Positions 4,095 through 54,796 of a stretch of DNA of 64,000 bases are shown here, piece by piece (position 1 is the stretch's first letter; each line of letters opens with the position of its first letter). Under the pieces are notes generated by a model. It was not told where the DNA came from. It searched no databases and saw only the letters and a program-made list of their open reading frames with translations. Location: positions 157,094-221,093 of the forward strand of contig CASIAP010000005.1 of assembly GCA_949372645.1 (NCBI GenBank), given 5' to 3'. The DNA comes from Candidatus Poseidoniaceae archaeon. Its GTDB lineage: Archaea; Thermoplasmatota; Poseidoniia; Poseidoniales; Poseidoniaceae. The position numbers and the translations under genes were made by a program.

Positions 4095-4188
4095 TTCAGA
4101 ATCTGAGGAGTGGTTCTCATCCAGAGCTTCACTTAAGCGAGAGTATTTCTAAACGAGATACTATAGTGCAAAAGCCTGAACGAAGGAC

Positions 4189-4644: not shown

Positions 4645-4711
4645 TCAAAGTACTGAAAGACATCAAACTTTCTTAATGATGAAGACTTCAATTATTCTGG
4701 TCATTAAAGAA

Positions 4712-4876: not shown

Positions 4877-4915
4877 TTACCTGTTTACAAAGAAGTTTAT
4901 GCTTAAATCGAAATT
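4854..4915. repeat. 62-bp direct repeat, left copy
   Basis: cttgattcaaagagaaaagaagattacctgtttacaaagaagtttatgcttaaatcgaaatt; 58/62 identical to 15937-15998. Confidence 0.95.
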
Positions 4916-4934
4916 AATCAATAAAGGGTGTTCA

Positions 4935-7900: not shown

Positions 7901-10900
7901 ACGAATGGTCGCCTCCTGCACTAACGGATAGTACTGAGAAACCAAGTGGCAAATTAACTAAAGTTGGTTGCAATTTATTGTCAATTGTTCCATCTCCCAG
8001 TTGACCAAAAGAATTCCTACCCCAACAATAGAGTTCTCCAGAGTAAGTGGTTGAGCATGTATGTGCCTTTCCGAGGTCGATTTGAGTAAAAAACATCGAT
8101 TGATTGGTGTGAACGTCAACTGGAATAAAGGAATTCTCGTATGTTGCATCACCCAGTTGTCCATCTTCATTTGAACCCCAACACAGAGCACTACCATTCA
8201 CAAGAATTCCACATGTGTGGGTATCGCCGACACTGACTCCAACAAAACCATATTCACCGGTATGCGATACTAATCCAGGTGAAGTGACCGCAAAATTCCC
8301 ATTGCATCCAGTGGTATACGAACCATAGACGCACCTGAAGCCTCGGCCGAGTTGACCGAAATCATTCTGACCCCAGCATTCTACTGCTCCGGCAGAGGTT
8401 ACAACACAGGTGTGGTGCTTACCTACTGCAACATCCACTGGCCACTGAAGTGACGAGAGGGTTATGTTCACCATCGTATTTATTGAATTCGTGTTACCTT
8501 GCCCAAGTTGACCCATGTCATTTGAACCCCAACAGACAACCCGATATTCTACTGTAATTGTACAAATATTGGAGCCTGAACTTGAAACCGTTTTGCTTGA
8601 GTTATACTCAGAAAGATAGATTCCAGCCACAGATGAGCCATTCCACTCCCAATTCTCTGGATATCCTGCGTCCCCTGATGGGCTTAAAGGAGCAAATCCA
8701 AAACCATTGTAAAGATCATAGACAGAGCTTGAATAACTCACGTTTGGAAGTATTTCGTCAACATTCAATGTGAAGTTGAGCCTGTCTTCACCTGTTGAAT
8801 TCCATAATCGAATTGAATAATGTGTTGATGGCCATGGAATCGCTGGAGTTCCGCTAATGTTCGCCGTTTGGAAATCAAAGATTAGACCGTCTGGCAAAGC
8901 TGGTTCAATACTCAAGTTTCGTTCATAGATGTTGATTGAAGGCAAATAAGCGCTCATCGTGGAGTTTCTGGTTAATTGAATCGAGTTGTATGAATTTTCA
9001 ATTCCAGATAGCACTTCAAAATCGATATCCCAACTCGAGAAACCAAAACTGTTGTTGGCCCAAATGGTATGGACTGATGATGGATAAACAACACTCGGAA
9101 TGCCCGTAATACGTCCTGTTGAATTGTCGAAATCCAAACCGATTGGAAGTGTTGGACTAATTTGGAAAGCTGCAACAGCACCTCCAGTTAGGCTGGCGAT
9201 AGGGTGAATGCTTTGGAAGCCTCTTCGATAGGAAATATCAAGTACATTATATTCGAGAATCGGAGGAATCTCTGAAATTACAATTGATATTACGGATGAA
9301 TCGAGCCCGTATTGATTGGATACTGTAACTGTATATTGAGAGACCGGTTGGTCAAAAAGAGGAGTGCCCCAAATTGAACCATTGGAGGGTTCAAAGAACA
9401 GCCCAACAGGCAAACTTGGAGAAATGGAAATAGAAGTATATGCACCTCCTGTAATGATTGGTGAACGTGAAACCATGGTTTGGTTTCTGGTTAACACAAG
9501 CATATTATTGCCATAATCGTAGGCAGGAACGACTCGTAATGACATCAGATTGGAATGAGACCCAATACTGCTGTTTGTCCAAACGGTATAATCTGTCCAT
9601 GATGAGAATGAGCTTGGAACTCCATAAAGAGCTCCAATATTTGTAGATGAAGAGAAATTGAGGCCTTGAGGAAGGGGTGGGTGTGATTCAACTGATTGGA
9701 CATTTCCACCGAATTGGTTTGCCTCAATCGTCGTGATATTGAAACCTCGGACGAAAGTCTCATTATTCGTATCGTAAGTAACCAGTGGAGCAATGTCGCC
9801 GATTGAAATTGTAATTTCGATGGTGTCTGAACCAGCAAGGTTCGACACATGAATCGAAAAGTTTTGCGAGGTTTGATTGTTTAATGGAGCCCCCCAAATT
9901 GTACCGTTTGATGGCTCAAAATTCAATCCTTGCGGAAGAGATGGAGAGATCGATGCAGAATATGCACCTCCTGTAATGATTGGTGAACGTGAAACCATGG
10001 TTTGGTTTCTGGTTAACACAAGCATATTATTGCCATAATCGTAGGCAGGAACGACGGATATTTCTAAATTAAATACACTCGAACCAACGGTGTTGCCACC
10101 ATAAATGGTGTATATTTGAGTGGCCGTTACTTGTGAAGCCGTTCCAGATAACGTTCCAAATGGTTTTTCAACAAATCCTGAGACCATGACCGGAATCGTA
10201 AATGGTATTGTTGAACCGATGCCAAGTTGGCCTTGAGAATTCTGACCCCAGCATTTCAAAGTGCCAACATCAAGCACTGCACAAGTATGATAGTTACCTG
10301 AACTCACCGAAACGGCTGTTCTTCCTGTTCCCAGAGTAACGGTCTGTGACGTATTTTGTTGTATTGTTGAACCGATGCCAAGTTGGCCTTGAGAATTCTG
10401 ACCCCAGCATTTCAAACTGCCATCATCAAGCACTGCACAAGTATGAGCGCCACCTAAACTCACCGATACGGCTGTTCTTCCTGTTCCCAAGTCAACGGTT
10501 TGTGGCGTAGTTTGTTGTGTTGTTGAACCGATGCCAAGTTGGCCATAGTAATTCTGACCCCAGCATTTCAAACTGCCATCATCAAGCACTGCACAAGTAT
10601 GATAGGAACCTAAACTCACCGAAACGGCTGTTCTTCCTGTTCCCAAGTCAACGGTTTGTGGCGTAGTTTGGGATGTTGTTGAACCGATGCCAAGTTGGCC
10701 TTGAGAATTCTGACCCCAGCATTTCAAACTGCCATCATCAAGCACTGCACAAGTGTGATAGGTACCTAAACTCACCGAAACGGCTGTTCTTCCTGTTCCC
10801 AAGTCAACGGTTTGTGGCGTAGTTTGTTGTGTTGTTGAACCGATGCCAAGTTGGCCTAGAGAATTCCGACCCCAGCATTTCAAACTGCCATCATCAAGCA

Positions 10901-13900
10901 CTGCACAAGTATGAGATGGAACCTAAACTCACCGAAACGGCTGTTCTTCCTGTTCCCAAGTCAACGGTTTGTGGCGTAGTTTGTTGTGTTGTTGAACCGA
11001 TGCCAAGTTGGCCATAGTTATTGTGACCCCAGCATTTCAAAGTGCCATCATCAAGCACTGCACAAGTATGAGCGCCACCTAAACTCACCGATACGGCTGT
11101 TCTTCCTGTTCCCAAGTCAACGGTTTGTGGCGTAGTTTGGGTTGTTGTTGAACCGATACCAAGTTCGCCATAGTAATTGTAACCCCAGCATTTCAAACTG
11201 CCATCATCAAGCACTGCACAAGTGTGAGAGGTACCTAAACTCACAATAGCTGCAGTCTGAGTACGGTTTTCTAGACTCAATCCTATGGGAAGTTGCGGAC
11301 TAATGCTTATTGTATCCACATTTCCGCCATCGAGGTTTGAGAGATTGAGATTCCCGATTGACCTGTTTCGAATAAAAGTATAACTTGAACTCGGATATGA
11401 GATATTTGCAAGAATATCGAGAACTCTAATCTCCAAAATTACTTCATCCCAACCAGAGGTGTTCTCTATAAAAATGGTGTGCTCTGTTAAGGTTTGAGGA
11501 ACTGTAGGCGTGCCCCATATCGTTCCATTATTTACCCCAATATACATTCCGAGAGGTAAAGATGGATGAACTGAAAATTGATAGGGGCCTCCAGAAAGAG
11601 TGGGGGAAATGTTGAGGTTTGAGGTATTTCTTACCAAGTTCAGTTGAGTGTTCGGATAGTCTGCCGCAATTCCAACTGTTATTGTAATATTTACATCATC
11701 CGAGCCGCCACTGTTGTTGGTGTACAACCGGTGAATTGTCATTGGTTGAGAGGCGAGGGGGGCTCCAGTTAACGCCCCCATTGAAAATGCCCCCACCAAT
11801 GCTGAAGAATGGGTGAAACGAACCGGTTGAGGGGTTGTGGCTGTTTGTATGGTCGAATTCAACCCGAGTTTTTGACCAGAGTTGTCCCCCCAACACCAAA
11901 TTCCTCCCAGTTCATCAACAACACAAGTGCCATCTGATCCAGCAAAAACATCCACTGCATTCATCCAAGAAGGAATGATTGTTACATTCACTGGACTCAA
12001 TCGATTGATCGTAGTTCCATCGCCAAGTTGCCCATGGGAATTATCACCCCAACACATTATTCCACCCTCATCCACCATAGCACAGGTGTGTGAATAACCT
12101 ACTGAAACATTGCTGTACGAGGCCCAAGACGGTGAGTCAACTATTTGAGGTGACAATTGATTTACTGAATATCCATTGCCGATTTGACCGCTGGTGCCAG
12201 TCCCCCAACACAGAATACTGCCATCGTTCCGAACTGCACAAGTATGTTTTTGCCCTGTGTCAAAATCCAAGGCAGTATATCCTGTTCCAAGATCGACCAT
12301 GACTGGAATGGTCGTTTCCGTACCTGTAGCTGATTGACCAGTCCCAATAGCATAATTTTGATTATTTCCCCAGCAATATAAGGATTCATAGATGGTTAAT
12401 ATACAAAAGTGAGAATCTCCACTGTCTAATTGAGTTATTTGCCCATAGCTATGTTGAGATATTGAATAGTCACTCGAACCTTGGCAGAACAAATCATTCA
12501 CGGCATCCAGAACACAGATTTCATTCATCGAAGTTGCCACTTGAACAATTGGAACAGTACTGCTAAACGTTGCTTCGATAAATTGAAGAGAATCGTTTGT
12601 TCCAATCGAACCGTTTATTTGACCGTAATTATGTTCACCCATGCATTTAACATCGCTGTTTGAATTCACTACACAAACATTTGTTGGACTCAAAGACACA
12701 TCGATTATCGCAGATTGATTATAGGGAAAGAAAGTATCAGGTGAATGAGTGAAGTCATCGCCCCAGCAATTCAAACCCGAGGAAACGATTGAGCAAACAC
12801 CATTCGAGTTGAGAAGAAGGTTCTCATTGTTCCCATTATTTGTCAATAAACCAACAATTGAAGGGTCTAAACTAGAAGAGGTGATTGAACCTCCGATGTT
12901 CGAGAGATCATTCGATTGATTTCTAAATCCTTTGATGAAGTGAAGTGAAGTGGATGTTGTAGATATCTCAGGTATATTGTCGACAATTTCTAATGAAAGG
13001 GGAACCTCCCAATATCCCGAGTAATTCTGTGTAGAAACTGTATATGTTTTGTTAAAGGTGACTTCAGTTGGAGTTCCCGAAATCACTGCGTTTGAGGAAT
13101 TGAATTCCATGCCCTGTGGAAGTTGAGGGGAAATCGAAAGAGTGCATGCTTCACAGCTGAATCCTGTTGGTGTAATCGACGTGGACTGGTTTATCGTAAA
13201 AACAAAAGAATCTGCTGAATACGTAATCGTGGGAGATATGTTGACCTGTATACGATGGAAATTAGTGGAGGATGAGGTATTATACCATACGTCGAGATTG
13301 AGAAGTCCAATCTCTTTAGGTATACCATGCCAAGAATTCGAGTCTGTCACGAACAGTGGAAAATAGGGATTGTAAGTGAAGAAAAAAATACCCTCTATTT
13401 GTGGAACATATACGTAAGATAATGAACCGATGCCAAGTTGGCCATAAGAATTGTGACCCCAGCATTTCCTACTGCCATCATCAAGCACTGCACAAGTATG
13501 ACCGTAACCTAAACTCACCGAAACGGCTGTTCTTCCTGTTCCCAAGTCAACGGTTTGTGGCGTAGTTTGGGATGTTGTTGAACCGAGGCCAAGTTGGCCT
13601 TGAGAATTCTTACCCCAGCATTTCAAACTGCCATCATCAAGCACTGCACAAGTATGATATTGACCTAAACTCACCGATACGGCTGTTCTTCCTGTTCCCA
13701 GAGTAACGTTCTGTGGCGTAGTTTGTGTTGTTGTTGAACCGAGACCAAGTTGCCCATGGGAATTATCACCCCAGCATTTCAAACTGCCATCATCAAGCAC
13801 TGCACAAGTATGATATTGACCTAAACTCACCGAAACGGCTGTTCTTCCTGTTCCCAGAGTAACGGTCTGTGGCGTAGTTTGTTGTGTTGTTGAACCGATA

Positions 13901-15825
13901 CCAAGTTCGCCATAGTAATTGTAACCCCAGCATTTCAAACTGCCATCATCAAGCACTGCACAAGTATGACCGTAACCTAAACTCACCGAAACGGCTGTTC
14001 TTCCTGTTCCCAAGTCAACGGTTTGTGGCGTAGTTTGTTGTGTTGTTGAACCGATACCAAGTTGGCCTAGAGAATTCCGACCCCAGCATTTCAAACTGCC
14101 ATCATCAAGCACTGCACAAGTATGAGAGGAACCTGAACTCACCGAAACGGCTGTTCTTCCTGTTCCCAAGTCAACGGTTTGTGGCGTAGTTTGTTGTGTT
14201 GTTGAACCGATGCCAAGTTGGCCATAGTTATTGTGACCCCAGCATTTCAAAGTGCCATCATCAAGCACTGCACAAGTATGAGCGCCACCTAAACTCACCG
14301 ATACGGCTGTTCTTCCTGTTCCCAAGTCAACGGTTTGTGGCGTAGTTTGTTGTGTTGTTGAACCGATGCCAAGTTGGCCATAGTAATTCTGACCCCAGCA
14401 TTTCAAACTGCCATCATCAAGCACTGCACAAGTATGATATTGACCTAAGCTGACACTTTGAATTGGCGTGGGGATTGCTCTACCTAATAGTACAGGTAAC
14501 ACCATCGCGTTTGAGATACTACTACCAAGTTGGCCATAAGAATTCTGACCCCAGCATTTCAAAGTGCCATCATCAAGCACTGCACAAGTATTATAGGTAC
14601 CTAAACTCACCAAAACGGCTGTTCTTCCTGTCCCCAGAGTAACGGTTTGTGGCGTAGTTTGTGTTGTTGTTGAACCGAGGCCAAGTTGGCTTTGAGAATT
14701 GTGACCCCAGCATTTCAAAGTGCCATCATCAAGCACTGCACAAGTATGAGCGCCACCTAAACTCACCGATACGGCTGTTCTTCCTGTTCCCAAGTCAACG
14801 GTTTGTGGCGTAGTTTGTTGTGTTGTTGAACCGATGCCAAGTTGGCCATAGTAATTCTGACCCCAGCATTTCAAACTGCCATCATCAAGCACTGCACAAG
14901 TATGACCGTAACCTAAACTCACCGAAACGGCTGTTCTTCCTGTTCCCAAGTCAACGGTTTGTGGCGTAGTTTGGGATGTTGTTGAACCGATGCCAAGTTG
15001 GCCTTGAGAATTCTGACCCCAGCATTTCAAACTGCCATCATCAAGCACTGCACAAGTATGATATTGACCTAAACTCACCGATACGGCTGTTCTTCCTGTT
15101 CCCAGAGTAACGGTCTGTGGCGTATTTTGGTTTGTTGTTGAACCGAGGCCAAGTTGGCCAAAGACATTGTAACCCCAGCATTTCAGAGTGCCATCATCAA
15201 GCACTGCACAAGTATGAGAGGTACCTAAACTCACCGAAACGGCTGTTCTTCCTGTTCCCAAGTCAACGGTCTGTGGCGTAGTTTGTTGTGTTGTTGAACC
15301 GATGCCAAGTTGGCCATAATTATTCCAACCCCAGCATCTCAAACTGCCATCATCAAGCACTGCACAAGTATGATATTGACCTAAACTCACCGATACGGCT
15401 GTTCTTCCTGTTCCCAAGTCAACGGTCTGTGGCGTAGTTTGGGTTGTTGTTGAACCGATGCCAAGTTGGCCATAGTAATTGTAACCCCAGCATTTCAAAG
15501 ATGTATCAAGTAAGATCAAGCACATACTATTACCGACCGATACTTTTCCATCGGCGTTTATTTCGTCTGGAGTAAAATACATTCCTTCTACATTTGAATG
15601 AATGTCATACGAACCAGAGGAAGTATTCCCGGTTAACGACGTTAGAATCAACGCTTTGTGTCCTGCTGTCAAATTAACAGTAGCATTTGAAGATACTGTT
15701 TGGATTGTAACTTCGGGTTCAAGGGTGAACTCATCCCATGATTGCATCGTAGCACTCATACTGATGGTGGCCATCAAGAACGACAGCAGAATGGCTTGGT
15801 ACTTGCTACGAGCCTTGTCCTCCAT
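4935..15825 (-). CDS. Giant (about 3630 aa) RCC1-repeat / putative Ig-domain surface protein, split by a 1-nt frameshift near 10917
   Basis: ORFs 10894-15825 and 4935-10901 join within one RCC1 repeat; signal peptide, HTCAVLDDG.LKCWG.N..GQLG repeats, LP.GL.F....G.I.GTP Ig-like units, DxDGD motif, C-terminal TM and acidic tail. Confidence 0.85.
5088..5238 (-). repeat. 9-bp minisatellite encoding (EEA/EET/EEV)n
   Basis: ttcttcagc / ttcttcagt / ttcttcaac units in tandem. Confidence 0.9.
10205..15500 (-). repeat. Three blocks of 7 RCC1 repeats with a 156-bp (52-aa) period (about 10205-11245, 13425-14450, 14525-15500)
   Basis: ccatcatcaagcactgcacaagt recurs every 156 bp within blocks. Confidence 0.95.
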
Positions 15826-42715: not shown

Positions 42716-45700
42716 TCAATCTTCTTCATCTGCTTGGAATGATTCATGACCTGAGGGGAATTTATCGATCTTTTTCCCAGTCAACATTTCTGATGCACCC
42801 AGTCCATCAGGCAAATCTACAACCATTTTACCACCCGACATTTCAGCTGATTCGGGTTTTGCAGTCAGGTTGACTATCTTTTTCCCAGTCAGCATTTGAG
42901 AGGGAGCAACTTCATCTGGCAAATCTACAACCATTTTACCACCCGACATTTCAGCTGAATCGGGTTTTGCAGTCAGGTTGACTATCTTTTTCCCAGTCAG
43001 CATTTGAGAGGGAGCAACTTCATCTGGTAAATCTACAATCTCTTTTCCAGTCCACCTCTCAGCTGCATCAGGTTTTGCAGTCAAATCCACGATTGTTTTT
43101 CCAGTCAGCATTTGAGAGGGAGCAACTTCATCTGGCAACTCGATTAACATTTTTCCAGATATCGCTTCAGTTATCTCAACTACAGTTGGCAAATCAAGTA
43201 ACTTTCCCTCAGTGCTTTGGTTTCTTGATTCAGCCTGTGATGATTCTGCAACAGCATCTACCGACGTGGCCGTTCCAATCACAGTTTCCGAAGATAATTT
43301 CCCAACAGTATTTGCGCCAGTGCTCGTGCCTAATAACTCGGTCTGCGAAGAGGCTGTGGCACCAGTAGTCTCGATTCCTGATTCAGAATGTTCAGGGGAG
43401 CGGAGATGTTCTTGCTCTTGCCCTGGAGCCAGAGCGAGCTTTAGTTCCTCGACTCGTTTTCGAGAAGAGATGACAATTAATGTAACGGCGAGTACGAAGA
43501 AGAATAAAAGAGCGAGCAGTATGTACAAAACAGTCATTGGTGTTGAATTTGGCGAAGGTGTGACAACCACCATATCAGATTCATAAACGGTAAGTGTGAA
43601 GCTTACTGAGCCTGAGCCGCCAGAATTATTGCCCCATATCGTGTAGAGGATTGTTGAAGAGTTTTCAGTTGCAATACCTGAAATAAAGCCATTCTCCATG
43701 GCTAACCCAGCAGGCAGATCTGGGAAGATATGCCAGTGTTCAACCATGCCGCCCGAATTATTCACTTGGACTGCCATGGTCGTATCATCTCGAAGAATGG
43801 TGAACTCGGCAGGGTTAATTGAAAGAACTGATGTTGGCTCAACGACAGTAATGTTGAACTCGACCAAGAAGAATCCTCCTGAATTCTCAGCTCGTACAGT
43901 GTAACTGCTCGCCGTTGAATTGAACAACGAGGTGCCCGAAAGAGTTCCATTTTCAAAGAGTAACCCTTCCGGTAAAGAGCCTATGATGCTCCAATTGTCA
44001 ACGAAACCAGCTACGAGTTGCGGCTCCAATGTGTCCATCGTTTCTCCTCGAATAAGCGTGAGATTCTCGAGCGAATATGTCACAGTTGGAGCCAATTCAA
44101 GGATGGTAATGTTGAGAAGCATCGAAGTTGAAGATCCGTCACTGTTATTGGCCCAAATAGTGAACAATCTTTGTGACATAATGATGGTGGGCGCTCCTGA
44201 AAGTATTCCGTTGACAAACGAAAGGCCGTCGGGTAGCATCGGTTCAATTTCCCATGCCGTCACAACACCATTGCTCAATTCAGGAGCCAATGGCGTCATT
44301 GTAAGATTACGCGTAAGGGTGATATTTGCGAGGGGGGAGAGGGTGATAGGTACCTCTGGTTCGTTCACGGTGAGATTGAAACTCATGAAGGCATTTCCAG
44401 CAGTATTCGTGGCCTGTACTGTGTATTGGGTCCGGGTCATGTTGACGGTTGATGCACCCCAGATACTACCGTTCGTTTCTCCAAAAGAGAGGCCGTTCGG
44501 TAGGTCAGGAAGAATCGACCAGTTCACAACATCTCCGCCAGTAGAAACCGGTACCAGAACCATCATCTCGATACCACGCGTCAATGTTACGTTCTCTAAA
44601 GAAGAAGAGATAACTGGCGGCTGGATTTCTAAAAGCACGGTGATGTTGACTGTGGCGGTTGAAGAACCACCCGTATTGACTGCTGTGATGGTGTACATGG
44701 TAAGCCCACGTACTGAGACTGGTGTTCCTGTAATTTGGCCGTTGGATGAATCAAAGTTCAATCCGGTGGAGAGGTCAGGAAGAATGGACCATGAGACGAT
44801 AGTGCCTCCTGAATTGGTCGGAGAAAGTACTTCCATGATTGAATTATTGGTGACGGTTCGATGATCAGGAGAATACGAGAGAACGGGTTGGATATCGTTC
44901 ACGGTGATGTTGACTGTGGCGGTTGAAGAACCGCCATCGTTGGTCGCAGTGATGGTGTAGAGTATGAGTGGTTGGAGGGTAAGCGGTAGCCCAGATATTT
45001 GACCATTGATTGCATTCATATTCAGTCCAAGGGAAAGCTCAGGGCTAATCGACCATGAGGTGATGGCACCGCCTGTATTGGTCGCAAAGAGTGGTGACAT
45101 GATTGAATTCTTCGTAAGTACCGCATTATCGGGCGAATAGGAAAGAATGGGGGGGGCGGAAGTCACGGAGATGTTGATGTTGGTCGTTCCTGTACCGATT
45201 GAGTTCGTACCCGTAATCGTGAACATGGTTCGGTTGAAGAGAACGGACGGCGTTCCAGAAAGATTTCCCGTTGAGGAATTAAAGAATAAGCCCTGGGGAA
45301 GAGCAGGGGAGATGGTAAAACCACTGGTGACGGTGGTAGTGATGTTACCGTATTTGAGGTTGCCATTGGTATTGTCATGGTATGAAAAATGAACATCGTC
45401 GTTTGAATCGATAGCAAGTGAGGAATACTCACCCACGTCACCTGATGAATCCAGCGTCTTTGACACCCAAGAGCCACTCGCATCTGTGGCATACTTGAAA
45501 TCATTACCAGAGGTATCATAGTAGGAGATATGTCGATTTTCGTTCGAATCCAAAGCAATTGATGAGAAGAATCCAACTTCGAGGGGGGAATCGACAGTTG
45601 TGTAGACCCATGAACCACTGGCATCAGTAGCATACTTGAGGTCGATCAGTGAGTTGTACAGATATGAAATATGCAGTGCATCATTTGAATCGATCACCAT

Positions 45701-48700
45701 CGAGGCATGGCTCCCTACATCACCTGTTGAATCAAGCGCCGTATATACCCACGAACCGCTTTTATTTGTTGCATACTTGAGGTCTTTATTGGTGTTATCA
45801 AAGTAAGCAATATGAACGTGCTGAGCGGAATCGACTGCAAGTGAGGTGCTGTACACCCCCACATTTGCAGAAGAGTCAATCGTCGTGTACACCCAGGAAC
45901 CACTCATGTCTGTAGCATACTTGAGGGCTTGATTGGTACCATCTCTGTAAGAGATATGAACTGCATCGTTTGAATCGATGGCAAGTGAGGTCTCTTGCCC
46001 GACGAAACCGATCGAATCAAGCATCGTTATCACCCAGGAACCGCTCTTATCTGTGGCATACTTGAGATCACCATTACTGTAGTCAAAGTAGGAAATGTGA
46101 ATGGCGTCGTTCGAATCAATGGCAAGCGATGAATGCTCACCAAGCCAGGCTGTTGAATCAACCGTTGTATACACCCAGGAACCACTTGCATTTGTGGCGT
46201 ACTTGAGGTGAAAGCCGTTGGTTTCACAATATGAGACATGCAAGGTTCCTTTGGAATCAATGGCCATCGAACTAAACAGTCCCCATGAATTACCAACCGA
46301 ATCCAATGTTGTGTTCACATCGTTTGACGCAGTTGAAAAACTACCGATTGCATTTCCGGTATTCGTTGGAGAGAGCGCTGGCATCAGTGTATTGTTGGTC
46401 AAGCTCAAGTCGCTTGGAGAATAGGAAATCATTGGTGCTCCAGAAGACACGGTGATGTTGATTGAAGCGGTAGAGATGCCGCGAATATTGAGGGCAGTTA
46501 CAGTATAGGGAGTCAAGGGGGAAGTCACACTTGGAGTTCCTGAAATCTCACCGGTAGTATCATTCAAATTCAAACCACCAGGCAAGGCTGGACTGACCGA
46601 GTAACCATAGGGATTCGAAGACGCATCCATCGCAAAATACGCAAGGTCGCCATTGCTAAAATCGGAGTACGAAATGTGCATTCCGTCGTTGGAATCAGCG
46701 GCGATCGAAGTGTACTTGCCAACATCACCTAAATTGACAAGGATACTATCGGACCATGAACTACCACTGTACTTTGCATACTTCAAATCATTACCAGAAT
46801 TAGCATGATAGGAAATATGAGGGTTGCCGCTGGAATCCAAAGCGATGGAACTATACGACCCAAAACCACCCATTGAACCAACTTGTCGAGTCGTGGTCCA
46901 AGTTGCACCGTTGTAGGTTGAATAAGCAAGGGAATCGTAGGTGAAGTCTTGGTGAGATATGTGAACATCTCCACCTGCATCAACTGCGATTGAAGAATGC
47001 CAACCAGAAGTCGTCCATCCGCCATCAGCAACCGAATTCGTCCAAGAACCAACTGCAGAACAACTGCTTGAACAGGTAGCGTACTTGAGGTCGCCGCCGT
47101 TATTTGTAGCATCATAGTAGGAAATGTGAACCTCATCGCTGGAATCGACAATCAATGAAGAGTACTGGCCTACGTCTCCAGTCGAGTCGAGCGTTATATC
47201 TGTCCATGAGCTCACAGTTGAGCAACTGATCGAACACGTTGCATACTTGAGGTCGGCACCGGTAACGCCATAGTACGAAATATGGACATTATTGTTAGAA
47301 TCGAGATCGATTGAGGTGTACTGGCCTACATCTCCAGTTGAATCAAGCGTCGTTAACACCCAGGAACCGCTCGTATCAGTAGCATACTTGAGGTCACCAT
47401 TGGTGCCATCATAGTACGAAATATGCACATCATCGTTGGAATCGGTAGCAATGGAAGTATACTGGCCTACATCTCCTGTTGAGTCAAGCGTAGAGTTCAC
47501 CCATGAACCGCTCTTGTCGGTCATAAATTTGAGGTCAGCGTTGGTTTGGTCAGAATATGAAACATACCGATGATCGTTGGAATCAAGAGCGATGGATGTA
47601 TGTGTCCCCGTAGTCCCCGTAGTATCGAGAGTTCCGGAAGTGATTGTGCTGCCAGAATTGATCGGTGTAGCCGTTGGTGACATTGCTGTGTTGATGATCA
47701 AGCTAAATTCGCTTGGAGAATACGAGATAGCTGGAGGCGCTGCTGCGGCATACATCATATACTCAAGATTGACATTGGAGGAGTCAAGGTAGGTCACGTG
47801 CAGGTTATCATTGGAATCAATCGCTAATGAGGAAAACTGGCCGACGTTACCTGTGCTGTCGAGAGAGACAGGTGTGCTCCAAGAGGAGCCATCATGGGTG
47901 ATGTACTCAAGATTGTCATTGGTGGAGTCAAGATAGGTTACGTGCAAGTTATCATTGGAATCAATCGCTAATGAGGACTCCCCGCCGACGTTATCTGTAC
48001 TGTCAAGCGAGACCGGTGTGCTCCAAGACGAGCCATCATAGGTCATGTACTCAAGATTCTCATTGGTAGTGTCAAGGTAGGTCACATGCAGGTGATCACT
48101 GGAATCAATCGCTAATGAGGAATCCCTGCCGACATGATCTGTGCTGTCGAGAGAGACAGGTGTGCTCCAAGAAGAGCCATCATAGGTCACATACTCAAGA
48201 TTGCTATTGGTGTTGTCAAGGTAGGTCACGTGCAGGTTATCATTCGAATCAATCGCTAATGAAGACTGCCAGCCGACGTTATCTGTGCTGTCGAGTGAGA
48301 CAGGTGTGCTCCAAGAAGAGCCATCATAGGTCATGTACTCAAGATTGTCATTGGTGTTGTCAAGGTAGGTTACGTGCAGGTTATCATTCGAATCAATCGC
48401 CAATGAGGAATAGTAGCCAACCTCATCTGTGCTGTCGAGTGAGACAGGTGTGCTCCAAGAAGAGCCATCATGGGTCATGTACTCAAGATTGCTATTGGTG
48501 TTGTCAAGGTAGGTCACGTGCAGGTTATCATTGGAATCAATCGCTAATGAAGACTGCCTGCCGACGTTATCTGTGCTGTCGAGTGTGACCGGTGTGCTCC
48601 AAGAGGAGCCGTCATAGGTCATGTACTCAAGATTGCCATTGGTGCCGTCGCGATAAGTCACATGCAGGTTATCATTCGAATCAACCGCTAAGGAGGAATA

Positions 48701-48892
48701 ATAGCCGACGTTATCTGTACTGTCGAGTGATGTAGATGACGACCAACCAACATTGGCGACGACGATATCTGAAAGCGTTGTCTCGGTGTGTGCGTCATGG
48801 CGATTGTCGATGGCAGATGACCACGACATCATCAGCAGAAGAGCCACCAGAAGCAGAGGAGTGGTGAACCTTGGACGTGCATTGATTCTCAT
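42716..48892 (-). CDS. Giant surface protein: beta-propeller repeats plus putative Ig stalk, TM and repetitive cytoplasmic tail
   Basis: Signal peptide; SLAIDSNDNLHVTY repeats; LP.GL....G.ISGTP units; TM plus RKR. Confidence 0.9.
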   Translation of the reverse strand: MRINARPRFTTPLLLVALLLMMSWSSAIDNRHDAHTETTLSDIVVANVGWSSSTSLDSTDNVGYYSSLAVDSNDNLHVTYRDGTNGNLEYMTYDGSSWSTPVTLDSTDNVGRQSSLAIDSNDNLHVTYLDNTNSNLEYMTHDGSSWSTPVSLDSTDEVGYYSSLAIDSNDNLHVTYLDNTNDNLEYMTYDGSSWSTPVSLDSTDNVGWQSSLAIDSNDNLHVTYLDNTNSNLEYVTYDGSSWSTPVSLDSTDHVGRDSSLAIDSSDHLHVTYLDTTNENLEYMTYDGSSWSTPVSLDSTDNVGGESSLAIDSNDNLHVTYLDSTNDNLEYITHDGSSWSTPVSLDSTGNVGQFSSLAIDSNDNLHVTYLDSSNVNLEYMMYAAAAPPAISYSPSEFSLIINTAMSPTATPINSGSTITSGTLDTTGTTGTHTSIALDSNDHRYVSYSDQTNADLKFMTDKSGSWVNSTLDSTGDVGQYTSIATDSNDDVHISYYDGTNGDLKYATDTSGSWVLTTLDSTGDVGQYTSIDLDSNNNVHISYYGVTGADLKYATCSISCSTVSSWTDITLDSTGDVGQYSSLIVDSSDEVHISYYDATNNGGDLKYATCSSSCSAVGSWTNSVADGGWTTSGWHSSIAVDAGGDVHISHQDFTYDSLAYSTYNGATWTTTRQVGSMGGFGSYSSIALDSSGNPHISYHANSGNDLKYAKYSGSSWSDSILVNLGDVGKYTSIAADSNDGMHISYSDFSNGDLAYFAMDASSNPYGYSVSPALPGGLNLNDTTGEISGTPSVTSPLTPYTVTALNIRGISTASINITVSSGAPMISYSPSDLSLTNNTLMPALSPTNTGNAIGSFSTASNDVNTTLDSVGNSWGLFSSMAIDSKGTLHVSYCETNGFHLKYATNASGSWVYTTVDSTAWLGEHSSLAIDSNDAIHISYFDYSNGDLKYATDKSGSWVITMLDSIGFVGQETSLAIDSNDAVHISYRDGTNQALKYATDMSGSWVYTTIDSSANVGVYSTSLAVDSAQHVHIAYFDNTNKDLKYATNKSGSWVYTALDSTGDVGSHASMVIDSNDALHISYLYNSLIDLKYATDASGSWVYTTVDSPLEVGFFSSIALDSNENRHISYYDTSGNDFKYATDASGSWVSKTLDSSGDVGEYSSLAIDSNDDVHFSYHDNTNGNLKYGNITTTVTSGFTISPALPQGLFFNSSTGNLSGTPSVLFNRTMFTITGTNSIGTGTTNINISVTSAPPILSYSPDNAVLTKNSIMSPLFATNTGGAITSWSISPELSLGLNMNAINGQISGLPLTLQPLILYTITATNDGGSSTATVNITVNDIQPVLSYSPDHRTVTNNSIMEVLSPTNSGGTIVSWSILPDLSTGLNFDSSNGQITGTPVSVRGLTMYTITAVNTGGSSTATVNITVLLEIQPPVISSSLENVTLTRGIEMMVLVPVSTGGDVVNWSILPDLPNGLSFGETNGSIWGASTVNMTRTQYTVQATNTAGNAFMSFNLTVNEPEVPITLSPLANITLTRNLTMTPLAPELSNGVVTAWEIEPMLPDGLSFVNGILSGAPTIIMSQRLFTIWANNSDGSSTSMLLNITILELAPTVTYSLENLTLIRGETMDTLEPQLVAGFVDNWSIIGSLPEGLLFENGTLSGTSLFNSTASSYTVRAENSGGFFLVEFNITVVEPTSVLSINPAEFTILRDDTTMAVQVNNSGGMVEHWHIFPDLPAGLAMENGFISGIATENSSTILYTIWGNNSGGSGSVSFTLTVYESDMVVVTPSPNSTPMTVLYILLALLFFFVLAVTLIVISSRKRVEELKLALAPGQEQEHLRSPEHSESGIETTGATASSQTELLGTSTGANTVGKLSSETVIGTATSVDAVAESSQAESRNQSTEGKLLDLPTVVEITEAISGKMLIELPDEVAPSQMLTGKTIVDLTAKPDAAERWTGKEIVDLPDEVAPSQMLTGKKIVNLTAKPDSAEMSGGKMVVDLPDEVAPSQMLTGKKIVNLTAKPESAEMSGGKMVVDLPDGLGASEMLTGKKIDKFPSGHESFQADEED
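42770..43210 (-). repeat. 54/108-bp repeats encoding GKxIVDLPDEVAPSQMLT / GKKIVNLTAKPDSAEMSG
   Basis: Visible in protein and DNA (cagcatttgagagggagcaacttcatctgg occurs 3 times). Confidence 0.9.
47755..48750 (-). repeat. Seven 144-bp (48-aa) near-identical propeller-blade repeats
   Basis: gtgctccaaga(a/g/c)gagcc recurs every 144 bp. Confidence 0.95.
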
Positions 48893-49004
48893 AAGAGGGC
48901 ACTTCCAATTTGACGGTAGTGCATCTACTTTTTAGCGATATCCTAAACTTGAAGCATAAATATTGAAAATCCTCAAAAGAACGATTCTGCGTAGTAATTG
49001 TTGT

Positions 49005-52000
49005 TTATTCTTCTTCATCTGCTTGAGTCGAGTCGGAATGTTCGGGTAAATCAACGACTTCCTTTTCAGGACTGGTTTCAGATAGAGTTTCATCAGAGGT
49101 GGATGAATTCTCTTCCTCTTGCTCAGCCAGCAGCCCTTCATCTTGTTCCTCTTTTTGTTCCTCTTCCTGTTTTCTGGAAAAGATTCCCAGCAATGTTAGG
49201 AGGAGCATCAAGACGAGTAAGACTCCAAACAGAAGGAACAATGGAGAAATTGGAGTGGAATCCGGTGAAGATTGGATCGACACTCGCTCAGGGTTTTCCA
49301 CGGTAAGTGTGAAGCTTACTGAGTCAGAGCCGCCAGAATTATTGCCCCATATCGTGTAGAGAATTGCTGAAGAGTTCTCAGTTGCAATACCCGAAATAAA
49401 GCCATTCTCCATGGTCAATCCAGACGGCAAGAATGGATATATCTGCCATTGTTCAACCATACCGCCCGAATTATTCACTTGGACTGCCATGGTCGTATCA
49501 TCACGAAGAATGGTGAACTCAGCGGGGTTAATTGAAAGAACTGATGTTGGCTCAACGACAGTAATGTTGATCACGACCAAGAAAAATCCTCCTGAATTCT
49601 CAGCTCGTACAGTGTAACTGCTCATCGTTGAATTGAACAGCGGTGTGCCCGAAATACTTCCATTGTCAAAGAGTAAGCCATCTGGTAAGGTAGCGTTTAT
49701 TTCCCAACTTTCAACAAAGCCAACTCCGAGTTCAGGCTTCAATATCTCCATCGTCTCTCCTCGAATAAGTGTGAGGTTTTCAGGCGAATAAATCACAGAT
49801 GGAACCGGTTCAAGGATGGTCATGTTGAGATTCGAAATTGAAGACCCGCCACTGTTATTGGCCCAAATGGTGTACACCGTTTGTGTCATGTTCACAGTGG
49901 GCGTTCCTGAAAGTATTCCGTTGTCAAACGAAAGACCGTCCGGTAGCATCGGTTCAATTTCCCATGTCGCAACAAAACCACCGCTCAATTCAGGAACCAA
50001 TGGCGTCATGTCCGAGGTGCGAGTAAGCGTGATGTTTTCGAAAGGATAGGTGACAATCGCAAGTGGTTCATTGATTGTGAGGTTGAACGTTGATGCAACT
50101 GAACCACCTGTATTGTTGGCCCAAACGGTATAGCTCGTTCGAGTTGAATTCACCAAAGGAATTCCAAGAATGGTGCCGTCCGACAAATTAAGGCCCAATG
50201 GCAACGATGGTTCAATTTCCCATGTCGCAACAAAACCACCGCTCAATTCCGGTGTAAATGGCGTCATGTCCAAGCTACGAGTAAGGGTGATATTTTCGAA
50301 AGGATAGGTGACAATCGCAAGTGGTTCATTGACGGTGAGGTTGAACATTGAGGTGACTGAGCCACCAGAGTTTTCGACCAATACCGTATATTGTGTTCGG
50401 GTCATATTGACAGATGAAGCACCCCAAATGCTACCGTTTGTTTCCCCGAAAGAAAGACCTGTAGGAAGTGCAGGACTGATTGACCATGTAAGAATGGCAC
50501 CGCCACCAGTGACGGAGTTTAGGGTGGTCATGTTGATGCCACGTGTCAATACGAGTTCACCAGGTGAATAGGAAAGCGTTGCAAGCTCATCATTCACAGT
50601 GATGTTAACTGTTGCAGTTATCGAACCACCAGTGTTTGTCGCAGTAATGGTATACATTGTGAGTGGTTGAAGTGCAATCGGTGTTCCAGAGATTTGACCA
50701 TTGGTCGTATCAAAGTTCAATCCATGGGAGAGCGCTGGAGTAATCGACCAGGATACGATGTCGCCTCCAGAAACCGTTGGAGACAGCAAGGTCATTGCCG
50801 AATTGTTGGTGAGCGTTATACTCTCTGAAGAATAGGTGAGAGTAGGCGCTACAGCATTCACAGTGATGTTGATGAAAGTGGTTGCCACACCTCCAGAGTT
50901 TGCAGCAGTAATCGTGAACATGGTTCGAGTCAAGAGTTCAATTGGCGTTCCAGTAATGGTTCCATTCGAAGTTGAGAACGAAAGACCGTTCGGCAGTGTT
51001 GGATGAATGGTCCACGATAGAATGACACCTGAACCGGTAAGAGTAGGTGACAGTGGTACATCGGAACTGGCTGTATTGTTGTTCAAGCTCAAGTCGTCTG
51101 GTGAATACGCAAGGATTGGAAGATTATCAACAACCGTGAGATTGATGTAAGCCGTTGATGAACCACCTGTGTTTGTTCCATTGACGGTGAACATGGTTCG
51201 AGTCAAGAGTTCAATTGGCGTTCCAGCAATGGTTCCATTCGAAGTTGAGAACGAAAGACCGTTCGGCAGTGTTGGATGAATGGTCCACGATGTAATGGCA
51301 CCTGAACCGGTAAGAGTAGGTGACAGTGGTACATCGGAACTGACAGTATTGTTGGTCAAGATCAAGTCGTCTGGTGAATACGAAAGGATTGGAAGATTAT
51401 CAACAACCGTGATATTAATCAAAGTGGTGGATGAACCACCTGTATTGGTAGCAGTGACCGAATATGTGGTAAGAGGTGAAACGACGGTTGGCGTTCCGGA
51501 AATCTCACCGTTCGTAATGTTCAACTCCAAACCCGTAGGCAAGTCTGGACTCACTGTGAACCTGTAAACATTGTAGGATGAATCCAATCGACTGCTGAGA
51601 AGATCACCGTTTAACACATCATAATATGAAATATCAACTGCGCCGGTGGCATCAACTGAAATCGAAGTATGGCTACCGACACCGACACTATCAATCACAG
51701 ATAATTCCCATGAACCATTCAGATTGGTTGTATATTTGAGCTGTTGATTGGTTCCATCGTAGTATGAAATGTGAACAAAACCGTTCGAGTCAAGCGCAAG
51801 AGAAGCGAATGAACCAACGCTTCCGAGTATATCTATCTCAGTCAATGTCCATCCGGTTGAGCCGTTGTAGGTTGCATAGCGCAAATTTTCACCCACTGAT
51901 GAATAAATACCCATTTGGTAGGCAATGTGGAGGTCATCATTTGAATCGATAGCAAGTGAAGTATAGAGCCCTACATTGGCAAAAGATTGCACCGTAGTTT

Positions 52001-54164
52001 TGACCCAAGAACCGGTTTTTTTGGTAACATGTATAAGGTCTCGATTGTAATCATCATAGGCAGAAATGTGAACCTCATCGTTCGAATCAAGAGCGATGGA
52101 TGAGTAGTGGCCTGCACGTATGGTTCCGCCGGTCGTTGTGTTGAAAGCAGTCTCAGTGACCCATGAGCCAGTCATGTCCGTTGCATATTTGAGATACGTA
52201 TCAATACTTGAATTTAAGTGAAGATATGAAAGGTGAACTTTAGCGTTCGAGTCTATGGCAATCGAAGTGTATAAACCAACGACTGAAGCATCCATTCCGA
52301 GTTGCCCCGTTGAATCGATCGTCGTGTTCACCCAAGATCCGCTTCTGTTGGTAATATACATTAAATTCCCATTGCTTTCATCGTAGTAAGAAATATGAAT
52401 CACATCGTTAGAATCAACAGCAATCGACGAATATTGGCCAACATCGCCGTTTGAATCAATGGTTGAATTGAGCCAAGAACCCGTCGTGTCAGTTGCATAT
52501 TTGAGGTCGCCGTTCGTTGCATCGTAATAGGAAATATGTTTGGAACCTGTGGAATCCAGAGCGAATGAAGAATATTCGCCAACATCGCCTACCGCATCTA
52601 CAATTCTGAGTTGCGTAACGGTGGTGTTTGCGCCGCTCGGTATCGGTCCGCCGGTATTCACTGGGACTGCCGTTGGAGACAATGCCGCATTGTTGGTCAA
52701 GCTCAAGTCGTCTGGTGAATACGAAATGTTGGGAAGATTATCAACAACCGTGAGATTGATGTAAGCCGTTGATGAACCACCTGTGTTTGTTCCATTGACG
52801 GTGAACATGGTTCGAGTCAAGAGTTCAATTGGCGTTCCAGCAATGGTTCCATTCGAAGTTGAGAACGAAAGACCGTTCGGCAGTGTTGGATGAATGGTCC
52901 ACGATGTAATGGCACCTGAACCGGTAAGAGTAGGTGACAGTGGTACATCGGAACTGGCAGTATTGTTGGTCAAGCTCAAGTCGTCTGGTGAATACGAAAT
53001 CACCGGAAGGGCTGGTGTTGAATACGTCACGTACTCAAGATTGCCATTGGGGGCGTCAAAGTAGGTCACATGCAAGTTATCATTGGAATCAATCGCTAAG
53101 GAGCAATACAAGCCGACGTTACCTGTGCTGTCGAGTGAGACTGGTGTGCTCCAAGAAGAGCCATCATAGGTCATGTACTCAAGATTGTAATTGGTGTTGT
53201 CATAATAGGTCACGTGCAGGTTATCATTCGAATCAATCGCTAATGAGGATTCACTGCCGACGATATCTGTGCTGTCGAGCGAGACAGGTGTGCTCCAAGA
53301 AGAGCCATCATAGGTCATGTACTCAAGATTCCAATTGGTTTCGTCCAAATAAGTCACATGCAGGTTATCATTCGAATCAATCGCTAATGAAGACTGCCTG
53401 CCAACGTTATCTGTGCTGTCGATTGAGACCGGTGTGCTCCAAGAAGAGCCATCATAGGCCATGTACTCAAGATTGTAATTAGTTTCGTCAAAATAGGTCA
53501 CATGTAGGTTATCATTGGAATCAATCGCTAATGAGGAATCCCTGCCGACGTTATCTGTGCTGTCGAGTGAGACCGGTGTGCTCCAAGAAGAGCCATCATA
53601 GGTCATATACTCAAGATTGCCATTGGTGCCGTCACGATAGGTCACGTGCAGGTTATCACTGGAATCAATCGCTAATGAGGAATCATAGCCGACGTGACCT
53701 GTGCTGTCGAGTGAGATCGGAGTGCTCCAAGAAGAGCCATCATAGGTCGTGTACTCAAGATTTTGATTGGTGGCGTCAAAATAGGTCGCGTGCAGGTTAT
53801 CGTTCGAATCAATCGCTAATGAAGACTGATAGCCGACGTTATCTGTGCTGTCGAGTGAGACCGGTGTGCTCCAAGAAGATCCATCATAGGCCATGTACTC
53901 AAGATTGCCATTGGTGTTGTCCCGATAGGTCACGTGGAGGTTATCATTCGAATCAATCGCTAATGAGGATTGATAGCCGACGCTATCTGTGCTGTCGAGT
54001 GTTGTAGGTGACGACCAGCCGACATGGGCGACGACGACATCTGAAAGCGTTGTCTCGGTTTGTGCGTCGTGCCGATTGTCGAGAACAGATGACCACGACA
54101 TGGCGACCATGAGAAAAACAAGAAACAGTGGCGCAGTGAAATTACGACGAGACAGGGGGCTCAT
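49005..54164 (-). CDS. Giant surface protein, tandem paralog of 42716-48892
   Basis: Same architecture; shared DNRHDAxTETTLSD and QADEE termini; likely start MSPLSRR (ORF-track start 54200). Confidence 0.9.
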   Translation of the reverse strand: MSPLSRRNFTAPLFLVFLMVAMSWSSVLDNRHDAQTETTLSDVVVAHVGWSSPTTLDSTDSVGYQSSLAIDSNDNLHVTYRDNTNGNLEYMAYDGSSWSTPVSLDSTDNVGYQSSLAIDSNDNLHATYFDATNQNLEYTTYDGSSWSTPISLDSTGHVGYDSSLAIDSSDNLHVTYRDGTNGNLEYMTYDGSSWSTPVSLDSTDNVGRDSSLAIDSNDNLHVTYFDETNYNLEYMAYDGSSWSTPVSIDSTDNVGRQSSLAIDSNDNLHVTYLDETNWNLEYMTYDGSSWSTPVSLDSTDIVGSESSLAIDSNDNLHVTYYDNTNYNLEYMTYDGSSWSTPVSLDSTGNVGLYCSLAIDSNDNLHVTYFDAPNGNLEYVTYSTPALPVISYSPDDLSLTNNTASSDVPLSPTLTGSGAITSWTIHPTLPNGLSFSTSNGTIAGTPIELLTRTMFTVNGTNTGGSSTAYINLTVVDNLPNISYSPDDLSLTNNAALSPTAVPVNTGGPIPSGANTTVTQLRIVDAVGDVGEYSSFALDSTGSKHISYYDATNGDLKYATDTTGSWLNSTIDSNGDVGQYSSIAVDSNDVIHISYYDESNGNLMYITNRSGSWVNTTIDSTGQLGMDASVVGLYTSIAIDSNAKVHLSYLHLNSSIDTYLKYATDMTGSWVTETAFNTTTGGTIRAGHYSSIALDSNDEVHISAYDDYNRDLIHVTKKTGSWVKTTVQSFANVGLYTSLAIDSNDDLHIAYQMGIYSSVGENLRYATYNGSTGWTLTEIDILGSVGSFASLALDSNGFVHISYYDGTNQQLKYTTNLNGSWELSVIDSVGVGSHTSISVDATGAVDISYYDVLNGDLLSSRLDSSYNVYRFTVSPDLPTGLELNITNGEISGTPTVVSPLTTYSVTATNTGGSSTTLINITVVDNLPILSYSPDDLILTNNTVSSDVPLSPTLTGSGAITSWTIHPTLPNGLSFSTSNGTIAGTPIELLTRTMFTVNGTNTGGSSTAYINLTVVDNLPILAYSPDDLSLNNNTASSDVPLSPTLTGSGVILSWTIHPTLPNGLSFSTSNGTITGTPIELLTRTMFTITAANSGGVATTFINITVNAVAPTLTYSSESITLTNNSAMTLLSPTVSGGDIVSWSITPALSHGLNFDTTNGQISGTPIALQPLTMYTITATNTGGSITATVNITVNDELATLSYSPGELVLTRGINMTTLNSVTGGGAILTWSISPALPTGLSFGETNGSIWGASSVNMTRTQYTVLVENSGGSVTSMFNLTVNEPLAIVTYPFENITLTRSLDMTPFTPELSGGFVATWEIEPSLPLGLNLSDGTILGIPLVNSTRTSYTVWANNTGGSVASTFNLTINEPLAIVTYPFENITLTRTSDMTPLVPELSGGFVATWEIEPMLPDGLSFDNGILSGTPTVNMTQTVYTIWANNSGGSSISNLNMTILEPVPSVIYSPENLTLIRGETMEILKPELGVGFVESWEINATLPDGLLFDNGSISGTPLFNSTMSSYTVRAENSGGFFLVVINITVVEPTSVLSINPAEFTILRDDTTMAVQVNNSGGMVEQWQIYPFLPSGLTMENGFISGIATENSSAILYTIWGNNSGGSDSVSFTLTVENPERVSIQSSPDSTPISPLFLLFGVLLVLMLLLTLLGIFSRKQEEEQKEEQDEGLLAEQEEENSSTSDETLSETSPEKEVVDLPEHSDSTQADEEE
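53025..54020 (-). repeat. Seven 144-bp propeller-blade repeats of the same family as 47755-48750
   Basis: Same scaffold sequence and period. Confidence 0.95.
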
Positions 54165-54220
54165 AGAGACTACTCCAGACAAGGGTCTATTGGGTAGCAT
54201 TTAGCAATATGCTTGATGTA

Positions 54221-54796
54221 TTACTCTGATTCTTCCGAAATCCAAGGGTTTTTCGGAGTATTTGGCCAATCGTTTTTCCCGACTGCGAAGCCTAATTTCG
54301 CAAAATTTTTCCGAGATTTCCGCCATACGGGTAACATGTATCCAATCTTTGAACGCTCACCAAAACCCCAACGCCAAGGACAGCGAGGTAATCGAGAAAC
54401 CCAATGCTGAAGCATGGATTGAGTCAATGGGTGTTCAAGACCTCCTGGTAAAACCCAAGAGATCATGTTGAGTGCCCCAGATGAACCACGGGTTTCAGCC
54501 CAGCTGGTCACTTCAAGTCCGCGTAGTGGACCATCAAGGATTCGTAGACCTAACATTCGTGTGGTCTGAGTCATTGGCATGATGATGGCAAAACGGTCGA
54601 CCATCCTCGAACCTTCATGACGTTCCATCGCCCATCCGGCTTCTTCAGCAAGAAGTCGAAACACTTTGATGGATTGAACAGGGGATACACTGACTTCGAA
54701 ATCTTGTGTAGCGCGTCGCACCATGATGAGTCCAACTGCGAGGTTGCCATCAACACTCCGATAGAGTGGTTCGATTTTGAACAGCCTTACGGCCAT
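54221..54796 (-). CDS. Hypothetical protein
   Basis: 191-aa ORF, no motif recognised; start may be the internal MVRRA. Confidence 0.65.
   Translation of the reverse strand: MAVRLFKIEPLYRSVDGNLAVGLIMVRRATQDFEVSVSPVQSIKVFRLLAEEAGWAMERHEGSRMVDRFAIIMPMTQTTRMLGLRILDGPLRGLEVTSWAETRGSSGALNMISWVLPGGLEHPLTQSMLQHWVSRLPRCPWRWGFGERSKIGYMLPVWRKSRKNFAKLGFAVGKNDWPNTPKNPWISEESE

Follow-up and report, generated by a model that had tools for sequence, protein, structure and literature searches.

Uniform scaffold and six hypervariable codons per blade in the seven-blade heads of two giant surface proteins of a Candidatus Poseidoniaceae archaeon

Two tandem genes were analysed in a stretch of 64,000 nucleotides from a Candidatus Poseidoniaceae archaeon (GenBank assembly GCA_949372645.1, contig CASIAP010000005.1, positions 157,094 to 221,093). 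This whole stretch is called the window, and coordinates are counted from its first letter. Gene A (42716..48892, open reading frame of 2058 amino acids) and gene B (49005..54200, 1731 amino acids) are both on the minus strand and encode membrane-anchored giant surface proteins with a repetitive head as the outermost domain. The DNA of the head repeats, or blades, is nearly uniform, and the variation is concentrated at six codons per blade. We propose that the head is an SBBP-type propeller built from a recombining pool of blade patches, with diversifying selection acting on a face that binds ligands, most likely glycans. We give this explanation a probability of about 0.55.

Tandem Repeats Finder gave a period of 144 nt with 6.8 copies in both genes, at 47755-48730 with 86% matches in A and at 53022-54001 with 87% matches in B. 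The A head covers 47744..48751, from blade A1 at 48608-48751 down to A7 at 47744-47887, and the B head covers 53016..54023, from B1 at 53880-54023 down to B7 at 53016-53159. The motif VGxx[SC]S recurs at a spacing of exactly 48 amino acids in six of six intervals in each gene, and 12 codons are identical in all 14 blades. Repeat period, motif spacing and codon counts confirmed the original prediction for this DNA, according to which both genes begin with exactly seven 48-residue repeats on a near-identical DNA scaffold. The two lists of variable residues that it gave for the VGxxSS motif were exact. Its list of variable sites was incomplete: positions 17, 18, 34, 36 and 39 were found to vary, codon 14 had been missed and the residues listed for TYxDxxNxN mix motifs of both genes. 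Over the 14 blades, codons 14, 17, 18, 34, 36 and 39 encode 5, 7, 5, 4, 6 and 8 residue types, respectively. When the blade pairs were pooled, the proportion of synonymous differences (pS) in the scaffold was 0.26 and that of nonsynonymous differences (pN) was 0.055, with a pN of 0.535 at the six codons. The scaffold DNA is 82-96% identical over the 14 blades and 87-96% over the internal ones.

The same pattern was observed in an extended set of 71 high-scoring blades from three genomes, G000 (the genome of A and B), G003 and G001. The entropy is 2.4-3.2 bits at the six positions and 1.4 bits at the next highest one, and each scaffold codon is the same in roughly 80-100% of the blades. The leucine positions each have their own fixed codon (CTC, TTA, CTG or CTT), and the serine positions behave likewise. 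Since distinct leucine and serine positions fix distinct codons, the uniformity of the scaffold goes beyond general codon bias.

The six positions are often occupied by Tyr, Trp, Arg, His, Asp, Gln or Glu. Position 17 is most often Tyr (25 of 71), followed by Arg (10), His (7) and Trp (7), and position 18 is mostly Asp (19), Gln (18), Tyr (11) or Glu (9). Residue use at these positions is strongly non-neutral. The positions are mutually independent, with only the pair 36-39 reaching p about 0.005 among 15 pairs, and no full six-position combination is repeated among 65 blades. The C-terminal propellers of A and B are ordinarily diverged, as had been predicted: their blades score 12-47 bits with the blade hidden Markov model versus 85-109 bits for the head blades, and between A and B they have a pS of 0.6-0.8. 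In 31 blades of such diverged inner propellers the same six positions are within the top ten by entropy, but in these blades the divergence extends to the remaining positions. The amino-acid diversity at the six head codons equals that of these anciently diverged propellers.

Relative to the consensus, the scaffold has a pS of 0.165 and a pN of 0.038, and the six codons have a pN of 0.28-0.52, which is 1.7-3.1 times the scaffold pS; these values come from rough counting without a likelihood site model. Five pairs of close alleles, taken together, differ at 27 of 192 hypervariable residues versus 34 of 1244 scaffold residues.

The fold of the head was modelled with AF2 from a single sequence, residues 34-391 of A. 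The model (pLDDT 78, pTM 0.78) has seven blades of four strands each. The top PDB matches in a Foldseek search are the 7-bladed Photorhabdus lectins PLL/PHL, with E values of 3.8e-16 to 2.9e-14, TM-scores of 0.72-0.81 and 18-21% identity, followed by the lectins BP39L and CV39L; all top matches are 7-bladed propellers. Pfam SBBP (PF06739) matched the head alone in 6 stretches with 42.0 bits (gathering cut-off 20.5, E 8.7e-11) and was not listed in a whole-protein scan at E up to 0.01. He_PIG and SBBP were found in the Pfam scans of A and B, and neither NACHT nor WD40. Propellers of glycosidases and sialidases appeared lower in the fold search (TM-score 0.50-0.69). An enzymatic role was set aside because the would-be active-site face would be the hypervariable one.

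In the DSSP string of the model the strands are at blade positions 7-10, 15-23, 29-35 and 40-46. The loop that precedes the second strand is bordered by positions 14, 17 and 18, and the one that follows the third strand by 34, 36 and 39. The two variable loops are the TYxDxTNxN turn and the loop before VG, the latter together with the beginning of the strand that follows. Judged by strand topology, with alternate loops of an antiparallel meander pointing the same way, all six positions are predicted to lie on one face of the propeller and the invariant loops DSNDN and DGSSWSTP on the opposite face.

The distribution of scaffold variants was then compared across blades, genes and genomes. Variants occur in at least 5 of 65 blades at 31 scaffold sites, several of them as transversions. 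Four gametes are present at 315 of the 465 pairs of these shared polymorphisms, and the mean r2 is 0.05 for sites up to 10 nt apart and 0.02 for more distant ones. For 27 of the 31 sites, the distribution of the minor allele over genes is as random as in shuffles. There is linkage equilibrium among the scaffold variants, which are dispersed across genes and genomes. Scaffolds differ on average by 0.116 when they come from the same gene, by 0.117 when they come from two genes of the same genome and by 0.115 when their genomes differ. Taken with the independence of the six positions, these data indicate that the blades draw on one well-mixed, family-wide pool and that the units of exchange are short stretches, not whole blades.

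Such stretches were seen between the B heads of G000 and G003, which differ at 26 of 1011 nt, with 20 of the differences in three patches. The patches comprise codons 25-36 of blade 3 (7 differences), codons 2-18 of blade 4 (9, including a 3-nt insertion) and codons 23-30 of blade 5 (4), and in each of them synonymous, scaffold and hypervariable changes are mixed. No exact donor of the three patches was found among the 71 blades, where the closest differ by 1-3 nt. The shared polymorphisms and the patches show that exchange is taking place. Copies of a whole blade are seldom displaced. Blade 3 is identical to blade 6 in the protein P0029, and blades 2 and 4 of gene A differ by 4 amino acids. 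Among 113 blades from 19 heads, however, only 3 pairs of blades at different positions differ at no more than one of the six positions, versus 24 same-position near-copies in related heads.

The original prediction had regarded the head as homogenised and diversified by blade exchange. The uniform DNA, the diversity at few positions and the exchange of sequence among blades hold, but the exchange of whole blades between A and B is not supported. In a maximum-likelihood tree of the 14 blades, calculated from the scaffold after removal of the six codons, only A1+B1 (100/99) and A7+B7 (96/95) were supported, and the 10 internal blades formed a star. The two genes had been expected to intermix in such a tree. 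The two supported groups are pairings by position. Over the tree the gene label changed 4 times compared with a mean of 5.0 in shuffles, and 160-161 of 500 shuffles were as low. It was also correct that the two genes share RQ, RD and RDGTNG, at blade positions that do not correspond. When each blade of A is compared with each blade of B (49 pairs), the residue pairs account for 2 matches and RDGTNG for 1, where the residue frequencies at each position in the other 51 blades lead to expected values of 1.44 and 0.23 (P 0.41 and 0.20). Since the residue frequencies predict this sharing, it cannot be taken as evidence that A and B exchange blades. Whole-blade exchange between the two genes was thus rejected in view of the tree, the chance expectation and the rarity of displaced copies.

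The heads were also compared with the bodies that carry them. The proteins P0003, P0006 and P0009 have bodies that are 97-99% identical over about 1100 amino acids and heads with 7-14% identity at the hypervariable positions and 84-88% in the scaffold, which is the family background. The reverse case is given by P0023 and P0025, with 92% hypervariable identity on bodies that are 52-53% identical. Complete heads are thus present on unrelated bodies, and near-identical bodies carry different heads. To judge from these comparisons, whole heads appear to be replaced on otherwise near-identical bodies.

Comparisons of A with B, of A with its counterpart in G003 and of the G003 pair with each other gave a head pS of 0.24-0.37 and a body pS of 0.6-0.9. 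Two flanking housekeeping genes have a pS of 0.39 and 0.68 between G000 and G003. Over the first approximately 1000 amino acids of gene B the pS between these genomes is 0-0.1, and over the remainder it is 0.5-0.9, with a break near residue 1000, at about nt 51200. The low pS suggests that the distal half of B, head included, was recently transferred between the species. The small gene upstream of B (54221..54796) has a pS of 0.18 between G000 and G003 (L030), and the window region 51200-54796 may represent a recently transferred tract. A stretch just outside the membrane is of low divergence as well: residues 1573-1773 of A (about 43574-44176) and 1439-1638 of B have a pS of 0.24-0.29 versus 0.6-0.8 in other body parts, which is probably due to gene conversion between the two genes.

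Within populations the heads are stable, and no rapid programmed variation was observed. In the 90% cluster of gene B, seven members cover the head wholly or in part. Four of these show no head difference (P0013, P0125 and P0133 at full length, P0128 partially), and the other three share one common patch in blade 3. P0136, an independent allele of A, has 38 of the 42 hypervariable residues of A in the same order.

We propose the following course of events. Short-tract gene conversion within and between loci would keep the scaffold uniform, with recombination that replaces whole heads adding to this uniformity, and diversifying or balancing selection would hold many residue states at the six positions. 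The head is predicted to be a ligand platform with either seven non-identical sites or one composite surface of 42 residues, and its specificity would differ among paralogues and strains. The repertoire of heads would shift on an evolutionary time scale and not within a clone. A glycan is the most likely type of ligand because of the residue types at the six positions and because the nearest folds are lectins that bind sugars multivalently, blade by blade.

Several results weigh against this explanation. A phmmer search of the PDB at E up to 10 returned nothing significant, namely 3 matches with a best E of 0.19 and no PLL or PHL among them. The placement of all six positions on one face is read solely from the loop alternation in the DSSP string. 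The pN/pS estimates are rough, as the repeats recombine and are not independent. The heads of P0013, P0125 and P0133 differ at 0 of 336 residues versus 26 differences elsewhere; the head is more conserved than the body in this allele cluster, and diversification is therefore slow. Finally, the synonymous distances of the scaffolds from their consensus are near Poisson (dispersion 1.23, p 0.10), which is also expected from a single young burst of amplification.

The diversity might instead serve evasion. Viruses or grazers would recognise the distal face, and frequency-dependent escape would drive both the diversity and the head swapping without any need for ligand binding. Different heads on nearly identical bodies within marine populations would fit this idea, as would the recent sharing of the distal half of B by two species. 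The stretch or a part of it was found in 20 marine or seawater metagenome runs from 10 studies, in 18 runs with at least half of the sampled words, and the mosaic depth along B, seen in contigs only, fits strain-specific segments. The contigs of 4 runs break inside the blade arrays, and 167-376 of 380-633 contigs fit two places, so that they show neither haplotypes nor the absence of variants. One contig joint, from 47738 to 53013, was uninterpretable with only 29 letters on one side. Against evasion, the non-neutral residue use, with its preference for Tyr, Arg, His and Trp at position 17, suggests selection for side chains of a binding type, and the same positions are the most variable ones in the diverged inner propellers as well. 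Evasion as the driving force is possible but unlikely in our view; it and the proposed ligand-binding explanation are not mutually exclusive.

A young burst alone could also have produced the similarity of the blades. A single unit would have given rise to the repeats by recent amplification, and the heads would have moved quickly onto older bodies, so that similarity would reflect youth, and the six positions would have changed by point mutation under positive or relaxed selection. The star tree of the internal blades, the equal distances within and between genes and the near-Poisson synonymous differences agree with this, and Hu et al. (2017; PMC5587647), in the part of their account used here, read highly repetitive prokaryotic WD40 proteins as young duplications. 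A burst would not readily explain the 31 shared polymorphisms with their transversions and four-gamete pairs, the patchy differences between close alleles or the two identical blades in the P0029 head. The heads are also unequal in their mean distance from the consensus (ANOVA p 0.001), and the positional orthology of internal blades is gone both between A and B and between A and its G003 counterpart. We therefore regard youth as a doubtful explanation when taken alone, although the shares of uniformity owed to youth and to continuing homogenisation are not separable from these data.

Programmed diversification, by a diversity-generating retroelement or by cassette antigenic variation with broken copies as silent donors, is very improbable. 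The variable patches are flanked by a conserved framework, and broken copies do exist. In G003 three head copies (L031, L032 and L035 on contigs C6, C7 and C4) are split over frames or truncated, and one such open reading frame contains 8-9 blades, with pieces of blades in other frames after it; these copies could be explained as pseudogenes, as debris of recombination or as errors of assembly or sequencing. In G000 a family copy at a contig edge (C12:3-362, minus strand) has in its first blade a TAG exactly at the hypervariable codon 17, one transition away from the common TGG, which may reflect a pseudogene, a polymorphism or an error. Reverse transcriptase (RVT_1), however, was found in none of G000, G003 and G001, which are 84, 94 and 86% complete. 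Consensus adenines are not the only bases mismatched at the six codons, with 151 mismatches at A, 137 at T, 97 at G and 72 at C, and the heads of the gene B cluster are unchanged in four of seven cases and carry the same single patch in the other three.

An assembly artefact, in which a short-read metagenome bin would have collapsed or shuffled the 144-nt repeats, is hardly credible: the bin has 17 contigs with one family member at a contig edge, and public contigs fragment inside blade arrays, but the B head is identical in independent assemblies, P0136 matches the A head in order and G003 has a syntenic pair.

By mode of evolution, not by homology, the closest analogue is found in the WD40 repeats of the NWD/HNWD proteins (het-d, het-e) of Podospora anserina. 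These evolve in concert within and between ten loci, with four selected codons on an interaction surface, according to the parts of the published accounts considered here (Paoletti et al. 2007, PMC1805685; Dyrka et al. 2014, PMC4986451). The archaeal heads likewise combine high internal repeat conservation and exchange within and between loci with a small number of codons under diversifying selection, by our rough count six per repeat instead of four. There are also differences, as far as those parts of the accounts go. The fungal proteins are cytoplasmic NACHT-WD40 receptors, whereas the archaeal head is extracellular and of the SBBP and not the WD40 type. Repeat number varies in the fungi and is fixed at seven here: of the 32 proteins in which one or more blades score highly, 23 carry exactly 7 such blades and none has more. 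Whole repeats are shuffled there, short patches and whole heads here. The hypermutation by repeat-induced point mutation (RIP) has no counterpart in the archaeal family, which in turn has spread across species. The prokaryotic WD40 proteins of Hu et al. are similar to the heads in their high internal identity and in the diversity at predicted hotspot positions, but a recombining family pool, head swapping and an extracellular setting are not described in the part of that paper considered.

With the Photorhabdus lectins (PDB 6rfz, 8q82, 5mxf) the heads have in common the seven four-stranded blades of repeated motifs; the fold is the same, whereas homology at the sequence level was not found. 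In the portion of the PHL study used here (PMC5584973), the sugar sites are located between blades, with tryptophan stacking. The lectins have one site per blade interface lined by aromatic side chains, where fucose or galactose is bound with the help of paired Trp residues; Tyr and Trp are enriched at the variable positions of the heads. The lectins are small and soluble with near-equivalent sites, whereas in the heads each blade differs and the whole is placed on top of a protein of 1700-2000 amino acids. The targets of diversity-generating retroelements also vary at few ligand-binding codons in a constant scaffold, although binding is only predicted for the heads, and they differ in all three respects noted above: no reverse transcriptase was found in the three incomplete genomes, the adenine pattern is missing and the heads are stable within a population. 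Cassette variation as in vlsE or pilE is distinguished by rapid change within populations, which was not seen here, and no donor-recipient relation between broken copies and heads was found among the 71 blades. Our literature searches on Poseidoniales and Marine Group II returned no earlier description of such heads, which is no proof that none exists.

The architecture of the two proteins is as follows. Gene A starts with an N-terminal hydrophobic segment (residues 12-27, 48812..48859), taken as a signal or anchor, which is kept across family members and may serve as a 5' recombination anchor. The head is followed by a linker (residues 378-396, 47705..47761); a similar linker is present in B and in other family members and may be the corresponding 3' anchor. 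Two diverged propellers of the same repeat type follow at 46625..47635 and 45350..46309, then a stalk of He_PIG (PF05345) Ig-like domains (43532..45349), a transmembrane helix (residues 1788-1810, 43463..43531) and a repetitive tail. The tail downstream of the helix contains a 108-nt tandem repeat at 42768-43138 (3.4 copies, 87%) with a unit of 36 amino acids, and the tails of P0010 and P0015 resemble it. Gene B follows the same plan with one diverged propeller (51726..52601), a longer He_PIG stalk (49245..51725) and a transmembrane helix (residues 1653-1674, 49179..49244). In its stalk a He_PIG domain is tandemly duplicated at 50914-51443 (273 nt, 1.9 copies, 93%), and stalk length varies among alleles (1480-1731 amino acids). 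All of these features are on the minus strand. The genes around A and B are archaeal (L10P, L1, L11, Spt5-NGN and FtsZ), and the source names on related proteins are Candidatus Poseidoniaceae or Poseidonia.

The family extends beyond A and B. In a blade search of 41 genomes, some match was found in 26, and blades with more than 75% identity were restricted to G000, G003 and G001. These three related genomes contain at least 13 open reading frames of the family, to which many metagenome alleles are added. G003 has the syntenic A/B pair and at least 5 other loci. G000 has at least 2 members besides A and B. The first is the copy on contig C12 described above, and the second, on contig C1 (about 1700-5800, minus strand), is an open reading frame of 1363 amino acids with thrombospondin type 3-like repeats, then the head and then a C-terminal cyclophilin-type domain. 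In the C1 head the loop before VG carries indels in two blades. P0029 is an allele of this gene, and its variable residues are entirely different from those of C1. In the protein collection the head was found on He_PIG, cyclophilin, thrombospondin type 3, EF-hand and other bodies.

The original prediction had also noted the same design in a second fold family of the window, and this was borne out on inspection by eye. The genes 4935..10901 and 10894..15825 on the minus strand contain RCC1-type repeats of 156 nt at 10208-11244 and 13423-15499, with 92% and 86% identity. Their translations have a near-constant scaffold; the variation is located in the two residues that separate SLG from H and in those surrounding the N that follows CWG. 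The apparent occurrence of one design in two unrelated propeller families of one genome suggests a general route to surface variation. A third internally conserved array of the window is located in the gene 1158..4094 on the plus strand, with thrombospondin type 3 repeats at 2997-3941 in 99-nt units of 88% identity.

More tentatively, Marine Group II archaea may maintain a common library of blade patches on which paralogues and strains draw, and even separate species. Heteromultivalent recognition heads with seven sites would then be built from it by micro-conversion and head swapping as a population-level repertoire, and the RCC1 heads would follow the same rules. We put this wider idea forward as a speculation of low probability. 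If true, a repertoire of the kind so far described for the immune receptors of fungi and animals would be present in a free-living archaeon, with particles, prey, partners or viruses as its targets.

Marine Group II archaea are abundant and uncultured. The family of their giant surface proteins described here pinpoints a likely recognition surface, the 42 residues of the outermost propeller. The surface of the head, and not the rest of the protein, distinguishes strains with otherwise near-identical genes, which makes the heads a marker for strain-level ecology as well as a concrete target for expression and for glycan or ligand screening. In conclusion, hypervariable hotspots in a scaffold that evolves in concert, a design of cytoplasmic WD40 receptors in fungi and bacteria, are extended to an archaeal domain that is extracellular and belongs to a different family of propellers.

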